DNA of 64,000 bases, from positions 139,934,001 to 139,998,000 of the forward strand of contig OX597818.1 in assembly GCA_951406725.2 (NCBI GenBank). The letters are read 5' to 3'. The stretch comes from Octopus vulgaris. Its lineage: Eukaryota. Each line of letters begins with the position of its first letter. Position 1 is the stretch's first letter. The position numbers and the translations under genes are program-made. Under the pieces are notes generated by a model. It was not told the DNA's origin. It ran no database searches and worked only from the letters and a program-made list of their open reading frames with translations. Shown here piece by piece: positions 19,840-22,814 of the stretch.

Positions 19840-19995
19840 TCATTTCTACTAAAGGCACAAAGCCTGAGGTTTGGAGGGAGGGGACTTGTCGATAACATCG
19901 ACCCCAGTGTTTCACTGGTACTTCGTTTATTGACCCTGACAAGATGAAAGGTAAAGTCGAGCTCGGTGGAACGATTCAACAACCTCGCCACATTA
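19840..19995 (-). mobile_element. SINE group B-related fragment
   Basis: atcgaccccagtg..ctggtactt..ttattgaccc..aagatgaaaggtaaagtcga. Confidence 0.7.
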
Positions 19996-20019
19996 AAAAA
20001 AAATTTTAATAATAATATT

Positions 20020-20298
20020 ACGGAGATGTACTCGCATAGCAAGTGATTTGATCTGAGATCGTGTGCTGGAACGAAAACAATTCTAGCGTGGAAGGTGTTT
20101 GTAAGCCATTTAAGAAACACTCAAAAGCCGTTCGATTCACTTCAACATTTAAGTTTAATTTGTCAAAATATTTTCGTCGCTAAAATGCAGCACGGATTTT
20201 GTCAGTGAACAGGTCGCGGATTTTAGCGACGAAAATATTTTGACAAATTAAACTTAAATGTTGAAGTGAATCGAACGGCTTTTGTGTGTTTCTTAAAT
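20020..20298. mobile_element. Element with a ~79-bp near-perfect inverted repeat (arms 20108-20186 and 20220-20298), probably a PLE pseudo-LTR plus its inverted copy
   Basis: The arms are reverse complements with one mismatch. Spacer plus right arm form a hammerhead-shaped fold. Confidence 0.65.
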
Positions 20299-20329
20299 AA
20301 TAATAATAGTTGCAGAATGTCCTGAGGTG

Positions 20330-20790
20330 TCACAGGGAGAATATAAGAAATGAAGACAGGACCAAGTTGTAAAAGTTTTATACTGGAAGCTCTGTCAGAA
20401 ACGGGGATTACGAATTGATCCATCATGACCATTTGATTACAGGATTTTAAAGAAAAAGGATGGAAAAATATATATTCCCTTAAAATTTCAAATTGCAATA
20501 ATTTGGCGTATGAAAACTACGAACGTTGTACCTGTAAAAATGTGTGCATTTGGACGTGTTTGTAAAGATACAGACTTAGATTGAAGGAGATTCGAATAGA
20601 ATGTCCTGTTGAGCTTCTACAGAAGGTGTGCCTCTTAGGGACAGGAAAGATTATCAGGAGGGTGTTAAGCACTTGAAGGACTATAAAAAGTTTTTGGATA
20701 CCTAAGATTACAGGTAGTAACCCGCTGCCTACATAAATTCTATCTGAACGAAGAACAAGCCTGAGTCAAATCAATAATAATAATAATAAC
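20330..20790 (+). mobile_element. R4/Dong-clade LINE 3' fragment
   Basis: QGEYKK*RQDQVVKVLYWKLCQK and ECPVELLQKVCLLGTGKIIRRVLST*. 3' UTR similar to that at 14940-15010, followed by (AAT)n/(AAC)n. Confidence 0.8.
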
Positions 20791-20863: not shown

Positions 20864-21310
20864 TAGTTCCTACTGATAAAAGTAATCTCATAGCAGAAAA
20901 CAGAGGTGATATCGCTAATAAACCGCAGGAAAGGAACAGTGATAGCTTGCTCGATGAGAGCAAATTATGAAATTCTGAAATACATCAGAACAAAAAACAT
21001 CACATAAACAAAAATTTTGATCAACGCAGCAAGTATTGTTGTAGCAAAAAACGTGGGTGTTGATGTCAAGAAAAAGAAATATAGTGGAAGTGACAAAAGA
21101 AATCTATGGTGGAACAGAAAAATACAGGCGGGTTTAGATCTACTCTCGAAAGGACATTTCTGTGTTAGACCGAAAAGAAAAGGGGGAGCTTAAAAGCGAA
21201 CAAAAATACAGGGCGCTGAACAGTAAGTATAATATTGAAAGAAAGGGCCTGAAAGTGGTAATCGAAGAAGTCAAACAGCGCCCCTTTGCAAAGAAAGCAA
21301 ATATAGTAAT
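20860..21310 (+). mobile_element. R4/Dong-like LINE pre-RT ORF fragment
   Basis: INAASIVVAKNVG...WWNRKIQ...DISVLDR...LNSKYNI....VIEEVKQR..AK, similar to the region upstream of RT in R4/Dong ORFs. Confidence 0.6.
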
Positions 21311-21314
21311 ATAT

Positions 21315-21945
21315 GATTGCTTCGAAACCTCCAGCTTCTATATCCAGACCATGAATTCATATTCATACCAATAATAACTGGAGCACTAGGTTTTTTTAGT
21401 AAATGCTTAAAGGAGAATTTGGATAGACCGGGATTTTCAGAAAGAGAAATCGACCTGTTAATTCGTAAATTACAAGTGCAATCAGTGAGTGGAACAGTAA
21501 AAATATGCAAGACTTTTCTCAAGTTCCAAATGTGAATTTGTTGGTATTAACTACATCCCAAAGATGGAGCCTTGTATCTTTATTGGAAACTGGCTCCCTC
21601 CTCAGTGGAAGATTTATAATACATACATACAAACATGAAGAAGATAACTAGGGACAACTGTTTCGAAACCTCCAACTTACAAGTTTATATTTATACCAAT
21701 AATAATTGGAGCACTTGCTTTTCTAAATAAATGCTTGTCAGTCTGGATAAGCTTGAACTTTCAGAAAAAAAACAAATCCATCAACTAATTCAGACATCAC
21801 ATATACAATCTGTAAGCGGAACAGTAAATATATGCAGGGCTTTTCTAAGGTTTAAAATGTGACCTTGTTTTCTTTATCTACATTCCAATGATGGAGCTTT
21901 GTATACTTGTTACAAACCAGTTCCTTCTTCAGAGGAAGAATTTAA
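21315..21945 (+). mobile_element. Two tandem diverged 3' ends of a second RLE-type LINE family
   Basis: LLRNLQLLYPDHEFIFIPIITGALG...LIRKLQVQSVSGTVKICKTFLKF (21317-21535) and a degenerate copy (~21640-21945). Each has a 3' UTR followed by (ACAT)n. Confidence 0.75.
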
Positions 21946-22814
21946 ATGATTAAATACAGAAAATACATACATACATTCATACGTACATATATAGGTATGT
22001 ATGACTGTATTTTTGTATACACACATCTCTACACATTTTGTGGCAGATTGTTTCATATTATATTTATGAACCTCGTGAGCAATGCATTAACTGTTGCTAA
22101 CGCTACTATTGTTGTTGCTGTTGTTATTGTTGCTGCCATTGTTGTTGTGGCTGTTGCTTATTCTGTTTTCATTTCCCCTCTATCAATCTTCTTTCTTCTG
22201 ACTGTACTTTATCTCCTTGGTCTTCATATCACTTTTATCTGTTTTGTCATTATTATTATAGTTAATTCAGTTTCTGTATACTGCTGCTCTCGAAAATCAG
22301 AGAAAAAATAAAATACAAGCAGAAAGACTAACCAAAACAAGATAAGAACAGAAAGAGAAGAGAGAAGGGAAAACAATTTCACAAGAAAGATGATCGAAAA
22401 GAATGAGCTGAAATAAAGAATATAAAGAAAACAAAAACGTTATATACTAAAACACAGGAAAAAAAACGAAAAATACAAAACATGACAAAATGTGAATAAA
22501 ATATAAATCAAAGTTCGTAATTAAAAGTTTATCAGAGGAATAATAAGAAAACGAAAATTTTGAAGATAACCGTAGTACTGCGGTTGACAGTATAAATAGT
22601 TATTATCTATAATTTATGTTACAATACATGCTAAGTTGAAGGGAGCGGTTTAGTCGACCGCAATGACCTCAGTATTTTAGTAACACTTTACGAAACGATG
22701 ACACGCAATGATAACGTGTGTGCAATTTGATCTAAGAATGTAAACAGCAATAATTGTAAGGAAATTTTTGCTCGACGCTCTAACGATTCAGTCAAGCCAC
22801 AGAACTTCTAATAT

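Follow-up and report, generated by a model that had tools for sequence, protein, structure and literature searches.

Introduction

Minimal hammerhead ribozymes are known from the pLTRs of Penelope-like elements (PLEs), where pairs on opposite strands lie 100-700 bp apart (PMC4209133). They have the type I topology, with an extra nucleotide inserted after position 9 and before 10.1, a G10.1-C11.1 pair, a palindromic 15.1-16.1 segment and, frequently, U17. The octopus motif described here resembles them in all these respects, but its stem I measures 7 bp, compared with 4-5 bp in the published motifs. Among the 56 representative motifs of Fig. S3 in that paper, positions 3 and 8 read C3-G8 in 53, U3-A8 in three, and G3-C8 in none (hand count).

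Compensatory changes of the core do occur in nature, as the U3-A8, A6C, and U15.1-A16.1 variants of Perreault et al. 2011 (PMC3088659) demonstrate; U3-A8 and U15.1-A16.1 are also present in relatives of the octopus family. The natural covariation named in the available text of that paper is U3-A8 and not G3-C8. Minimal hammerheads in pLTRs, their opposite-strand pairs, and U3-A8 are thus already known (PMC4209133; PMC3088659). For G3-C8, the literature searched gives engineered uses only, and we found no natural example in the accessible portions of PMC6765202, PMC6155905, PMC10085705, and PMC11014351; a prior mention is possible.

The swap itself has been made in the laboratory. The C3G/G8C mutant of the Poseidon-Ac hammerhead is partly active (Frangieh et al. 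2024, PMC11167929), whereas in the octopus family the same swap is natural and fixed. The anole PLE hammerhead of that paper requires protein to cut, and C3G/G8C partly rescues its cleavage. Poseidon-Ac further resembles the octopus family in having two RT start sites that give a tail, in the insertion of uncut RNA, and in its AT-rich targets. It differs in being cut 26 nt inside the ORF, while the predicted cut of the octopus family lies 57 nt before the ATG, with a tail of about 58 nt. At the protein level the closest described elements are the C-terminal EN+ PLEs Nematis and Neptune (Craig et al. 2021, PMC8557442), which share with the octopus family an RT, a Cys-rich linker, and a GIY-YIG at the C-terminus, as well as pLTRs, inverted 5'-truncated copies, a tail, and a preference for (TA)n. 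By linker comparison only, the octopus family, with its short linker, is like Nematis and unlike Neptune.

The insertion

The window is the whole 64,000-nucleotide stretch of Octopus vulgaris DNA that was analysed. It contains an insertion from ~20017 to 20298, with 11-bp duplications on both sides, which is a hairpin-shaped pLTR (end-piece) of a Penelope-like retroelement. The initial annotation had placed it at 20020-20298; the right end stands, and the left end must be moved to about 20017 on the evidence of the 11-bp duplication. Its parts are as follows.

20007-20017, no strand: target-site duplication, left copy, 11 bp, AT-rich
20017-20186, minus strand: long inverted pLTR arm, which begins at loop II of the hammerhead, takes in the 5' UTR and ORF start, and extends to the distal "tail" end
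20017-20109, minus strand: start of the PLE ORF, first ~31 codons, ATG at 20109, by frame homology
20185-20298, plus strand: short sense pLTR arm, from 56 nt before the predicted cut to the ORF start
20108-20186 and 20220-20298, no strand: arms of a 79-bp inverted repeat
20298-20308, no strand: target-site duplication, right copy, 11 bp

The long inverted arm aligns with positions of about -22 to +148, counted from the cut, of a full element (L116), and the short sense arm is 97% identical to the same element. As originally described, the 79-bp arms differ at a single base, located at 20285. The ORF start is interrupted by a stop at codon 9 in the window copy; the same frame runs on into the full ORF in L116, L204, and L205, and is homologous to the N-terminus of a sister family and of a related locus, L293. 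In a read-through transcript, pairing of the 79-bp arm is predicted to cover half of the motif, namely the 3' side of stem II, GAAA, stem III, and the 3' side of stem I, and in the window copy the hammerhead fold is predicted to be sequestered or silenced by its own inverted arm. The copy carries loop II of the youngest subfamily, congruent with the young insertion first proposed. Taken by itself, this locus is an unremarkable transposon fragment.

The hammerhead motif

A 50-mer with hammerhead-like stems had been reported at 20198-20247, and this position was confirmed. All of its elements are on the plus strand.

20198-20247: minimal type I hammerhead motif; its core is G3-C8, an extra G follows A9, stem III is palindromic, and position 17 is U
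20198-20204 and 20241-20247: stem I, 7 bp
20205-20212: variant core GTGAACAG, with G3 at 20205, C8 at 20210, A9 at 20211, and the extra G at 20212
20213-20217 and 20226-20230: stem II, 5 bp
20231-20234: GAAA
20234-20239: palindrome AATATT
20240: U17, the predicted cut lying between 20240 and 20241

For a 55-nt piece, stems I and II are the predicted fold (-15.4 kcal/mol; z = -3.47), a stability equalled by one of 200 shuffles, and the motif occurs once in the window where 0.02 occurrences are expected. Both stems are likewise predicted, with a probability of 0.7-1.0, for the 5' RNA of a full copy. Stem III is a six-base A/U palindrome, the homoduplex of which is very weak (-0.2 kcal/mol); an unconstrained dimer fold makes no use of it. 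U4, G5, A6, A9, G12-A13-A14, A15.1-U16.1, and H17 (here U) are all present, and each is at least 95% conserved in 192-231 arms. The consensus core C3-U4-G5-A6-N7-G8-A9 is not matched, the motif having G3 and C8 instead, which form a G-C Watson-Crick pair. Searches against Rfam, with the whole window at the gathering score and with 20000-20320 at E <= 10, returned no hammerhead; the E-value hits at the hairpin were mostly to miRNA-precursor models, all under the gathering score.

Copies of the family

A search of the 2.8-Gb genome with the 279-bp query gave 1,369 candidates, 40 of which were scored; the best 30 loci all possess the same unequal hairpin. When the exact flanks were fixed and the eight core bases left free, 6,792 sites were found (reversed control, 2), and 5,534 of these (81.5%) read GTGAACAG. 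The swap is therefore the consensus of the family and not a product of decay, as had been surmised from the window copy alone. In the first 100 of the 173 non-G3 sites, C3 was present in 11, and C3 together with G8, the canonical arrangement, in none (hand count). Among the first 100 of the 356 non-C8 sites, about 40 read G8 (hand count). Copies with G3·G8 number roughly 140, compared with roughly 19 for the reciprocal G3-to-C change, a difference of roughly sevenfold.

The copies fall into three subfamilies (old, mid, and young) distinguished mainly by loop II, with mean distances from their own majority line of 4.9, 3.1, and 2.0%. Over the three, columns in which at least 10% of the arms carry a variant amount to 0 of 42 in the core and stems versus 11 of 72 in the flank, loop, and UTR (Fisher p = 0.007); this test used 265 of 325 arms, leaving out arms selected on the motif, and its outcome depends on the threshold and on arms that are non-independent. 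Just under the threshold are a C8-to-G change (15/205; 7%) and, in stem I, a change compatible with G·U pairing (22/232; 9%). Loop II has thus been altered repeatedly while the 42 core and stem columns are without a common variant.

The G3·G8 allele is present in the old, mid, and young subfamilies, from which it follows that copies with an unpaired core were amplified or were spread by recombination; a purely ancestral class does not fit this distribution. These copies, one step from the canonical core, may represent the intermediate of the swap. Among the G3·G8 loci (L105, L106, L132, L211, L212, L273, and L274), some have long pieces of the ORF, and an upstream haplotype common to several subfamilies hints at recombination.

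The parent element and its protein

Copies that extend upstream (587 sites) contain a microsatellite-rich 3' UTR followed by an ORF, which in L114 is a frame of 1,025 codons. L116 has the order motif (+4942), ORF, 3' UTR, motif (+9203), and on its 5' side lies a truncated copy in inverted orientation (-1153); this is the PLE layout drawn in PMC8557442. Inverted pLTR pairs are also found in L094-L098, L114, and L117-L119. The inverted arm of the window copy had been interpreted as an inverted partial pLTR of a PLE, which L116 and other long copies bear out. An association with PLE RT and GIY-YIG had also been envisaged, and both are encoded by the ORF of the longer copies.

The C-terminal GIY-YIG matches PF01541 (E 1.6e-5; 25.6 bits, cut-off 22.6) over residues 880-970 of 990. 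The RT was recognized by comparison with the RVT_1-positive, PLE-type ORF of L092 (hhalign 99.2%, E 8.9e-20, 451 columns); Pfam RVT_1 gave no match to the family protein itself, and a PDB sequence search with it gave weak RT matches only (E 0.007 and 0.33). Its best named relative is an Octopus vulgaris hypothetical protein (58%). By these homologies the parent is identified as a PLE with RT and C-terminal GIY-YIG (EN+, C-terminal). The ATG of the ORF is located 57 nt downstream of the predicted cut, and the 3' part of the short copies therefore corresponds to the first ~30 codons.

The EN linker is short, with a CX2-5CxxC before the GIY-YIG, and is of the Nematis type (by eye against Fig. S2 of PMC8557442); by linker comparison alone, the family resembles Nematis. 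Placement in the Neptune clade is disfavoured by the linker, which shows a 17-residue gap against a Neptune-type ORF where Neptune has a long (about 25 aa) spacer after CxxC. The interval between RT3 and RT4 is 132 aa in both this family (L114:2971-5940, minus strand) and the sister family (L121:2942-6877, plus strand), compared with 63 aa in a Neptune-type RT of the same genome, and the long insertion occupies the position of the telomerase insertion-in-fingers domain. In PMC8557442 that domain is a feature of PLEs with an N-terminal EN rather than of canonical PLEs. PLEs with the RT3-RT4 insertion may constitute an undescribed subclade; relatives number more than 140.

Relatives and covariation

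The sister family in the same genome has an ORF of up to 1,312 aa with 53% protein identity, and carries a C3-G8 motif at the same place, with a stem II that is homologous, and a compensatory change. It is represented by 3,945 sites, the first 100 of which read CTGATGCG (A9C) in 81 cases and the canonical core in four. Many copies have C at position 17; in the long intact ones it is U. The sister family drifted from the canonical core to A9C and U17 yet still multiplied. Nine further related loci were obtained from metagenome contigs, four of them with a motif directly behind the ORF; L293 and L299 have C3-G8, and the remaining hammerheads are listed here with those of the sister family.

L121:7385-7435 and L234-L263: sister-family hammerhead, mostly A9C, minority canonical
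L294, 2491-2537: hammerhead with U3-A8 plus C9
L295, 4965-5020: hammerhead with C3-G8 and swapped U15.1-A16.1

No convincing motif was seen in L296, L297, L298, L300, and L301, several of which are without a 3' end, and these loci were left outside the covariation set.

That set consists of nine motifs from six families (three from this family, two from the sister family, and four others); it is small, and its members are related and were picked for having a motif. The 3:8 pair is CG in four, GC in three, and UA in one, with one gap, so that the pair forms in all eight motifs in which both letters are present. Overall, 93.7% of cells are paired, a value reached by none of 500 shuffles, and slid controls did not exceed 51%. 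With C3-G8 or U3-A8 found in relatives at the corresponding place, the pair covaries three ways, and the earlier reading of G3-C8 as a compensatory swap is borne out. Fixation, three-way covariation, and conservation of core and stems together identify the motif, at the sequence level, as a real homologue of the minimal type I hammerhead with a natural, compensatory G3-C8 swap.

Ends of the copies

Ends were examined in 76 arms from 70 loci, taken from among the first listed of 7,981 sites and all on contig C1. The 3' ends form two classes relative to the ATG, +29 to +37 (37/76) and +83 to +95 (39/76). In the anole PLE the tail marks two RT start sites (PMC11167929), and the two classes seen here are the PLE tail. 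A large number of copies form almost perfect hairpins, about 300-330 bp long, with unequal arms that are variably truncated at the centre. Fifteen of 30 hairpin loci scored as (TA)n; among the remaining 15, a duplication of at least 8 nt is present in 14, compared with 23 of 210 mismatched end pairs sharing at least 8 nt in the control. The duplications at hairpin targets measure 11-14 bp.

By anchored extension, none of the 76 arms has its 5' end at the predicted cut and 64 cross the site, while 29 of the 76 end at -62 to -50 and five at +6 to +9. Among BLAST ends, one of 100 copies and none of 61 hairpin arms coincide with the cut. Most inserted copies, we conclude, derive from uncut RNA. 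In the C3-G8 sister family, 0 of 30 ends fall at its own cut; as the sister family has no ends at its cut and the canonical anole motif leaves no reads there, the missing peak is not specific to the swap. An end peak at -43 was set aside, being partly an artefact of a subfamily indel in the reference and of six duplicated loci that are nearly identical.

Beyond -58 the short copies have no constant upstream sequence except for one frequent extra G (13 of 29 arms). The lack of a common upstream sequence together with the frequent G leads us to prefer a transcription start, with a cap-derived G, over a spliced first exon as the origin of the shared 5' end. The sequence before this end (L116:4895-4925 and L061-L090) resembles a branch point with a 3' splice site, and also an initiator.

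Possible function of the motif

The explanation we favour, and consider moderately probable, is that a minimal hammerhead with a fixed swap resides in the pLTR of this PLE and cuts slowly, only as a dimer or with the help of a protein of the element. The RNA would start about 58 nt ahead of the cut. Priming by RT at either of two sites, ~30-35 or 91-94 nt from the start of the ORF, would be followed by copying back over the uncut motif, and priming on both nicked strands would generate the hairpin. Cutting would strip the mRNA of its 5' end and, at the downstream pLTR, of the priming tail. Since the cut would be costly in both ways, selection would keep a core that is competent but weak, which a slow ribozyme gated by dimerization or protein fits. 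Crystals of minimal hammerheads in the ground state do not show the C3-G8 pair, which is visible in the active structure with tertiary stabilisation (PMC3884650). As the pair forms in the active conformation, its preserved complementarity is the best argument for selection on catalysis, and sequence comparison makes it likely that the swap was kept by selection. It is also conceivable, though doubtful, that the clade as a whole tunes the ribozyme down through C3-G8, U3-A8, G3-C8, U15.1-A16.1, and A9C, the ~140 G3·G8 copies being the surviving one-step intermediate and the element being active and slow by design. If true, a compensatory change in a ribozyme active site would be traceable in the genomic fossil record.

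A descendant of a hammerhead that has lost the ability to cut, and whose shape or sequence is kept for another task in the 5' UTR (protein binding, an internal promoter, or translation), would account for the lack of a 5' end peak at the cut, for the amplification of G3·G8 copies, and for the fixation of A9C in the sister family. It would also agree with the further departures in L294 (U3-A8 with C9) and L295 (U15.1-A16.1), and with insertion in vitro being unaffected by catalytic mutants (PMC11167929). We nevertheless think it rather unlikely. A purely structural role leaves the Watson-Crick pair at 3:8 in eight of eight motifs unexplained, the C3-G8 sister family is equally devoid of ends at the cut, and the canonical hammerhead of the anole PLE has no RNA-seq ends at its cut site yet cuts in vitro with protein (PMC11167929). 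The opposite proposal, an efficient ribozyme whose cut RNA (uncapped and degraded) is never reverse-transcribed, so that the genome samples an uncut minority, draws on the strong predicted fold in the native 5' context and on covariation and conservation of core and stems. We judge it improbable: the monomer has no stable stem III, the rate drops 10^5-fold with G8C and recovers only in part when C3G is added (PMC8495972), and the minimal PLE hammerheads of metazoans show poor cutting even in dimeric form (PMC4209133).

The three subfamilies are only a few percent apart and all copies stem from few masters, so fixation alone shows nothing, and a chance founder change in a dead, neutrally drifting motif could have been carried to all of them. 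This is very improbable given that two changes occurred exactly at 3 and 8 with pairing restored, and that the 42 constrained columns have no common variant while loop II changed repeatedly; by simple arithmetic, if two of the 11 core bases change at random, positions 3 and 8 are both hit and left paired in about 1 case in 165. The initial annotation had itself named a TIR DNA transposon as an alternative, and the many near-perfect hairpins of about 300-330 bp do recall such an element, or a MITE, with an accidental likeness to a hammerhead. That reading is refuted by the unequal arms, the variable truncation at the centre, the duplications varying from 11 to 14 bp, and the long copies running into an ORF with RT and GIY-YIG, and we give it practically no credence.

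With G3-C8 fixed in more than 5,500 copies, searches based on CUGANGA, and Rfam, miss whole families. Lunse et al. 2017 reportedly describe about 150,000 PLE-associated variants. The G3-C8, G3·G8, and canonical plus A9C sister forms in one genome make a side-by-side test set for whether PLE hammerheads must cut.

Neighbouring sequences

A separate Neptune-type PLE ORF of 764 aa is located at L092:6550-8841 (minus strand), with RVT_1 above the cut-off and GIY-YIG below it; inspection by eye of the 400 nt behind it revealed no hammerhead. The motif also occurs in tandem arrays without the family ORF, with three copies about 3.4 kb apart in L091/L092 and three about 2.6 kb apart in L093, which are probably larger tandem duplications. 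A 239-aa frame resembling, by eye, a Tc1/mariner transposase adjoins a long copy (L096:7240-7956, minus strand).

Within the window, positions 19855-19990 hold a piece of a common SINE-like repeat, which we take to resemble the octopus OK SINE. On the other side of the insertion, 20310-20730 and 21000-21960 contain decayed pieces with the look, by eye, of a LINE of the restriction-enzyme-like endonuclease type, and we presume them to be a LINE of that kind. These pieces include a diverged direct repeat with a spacing of about 327 bp.
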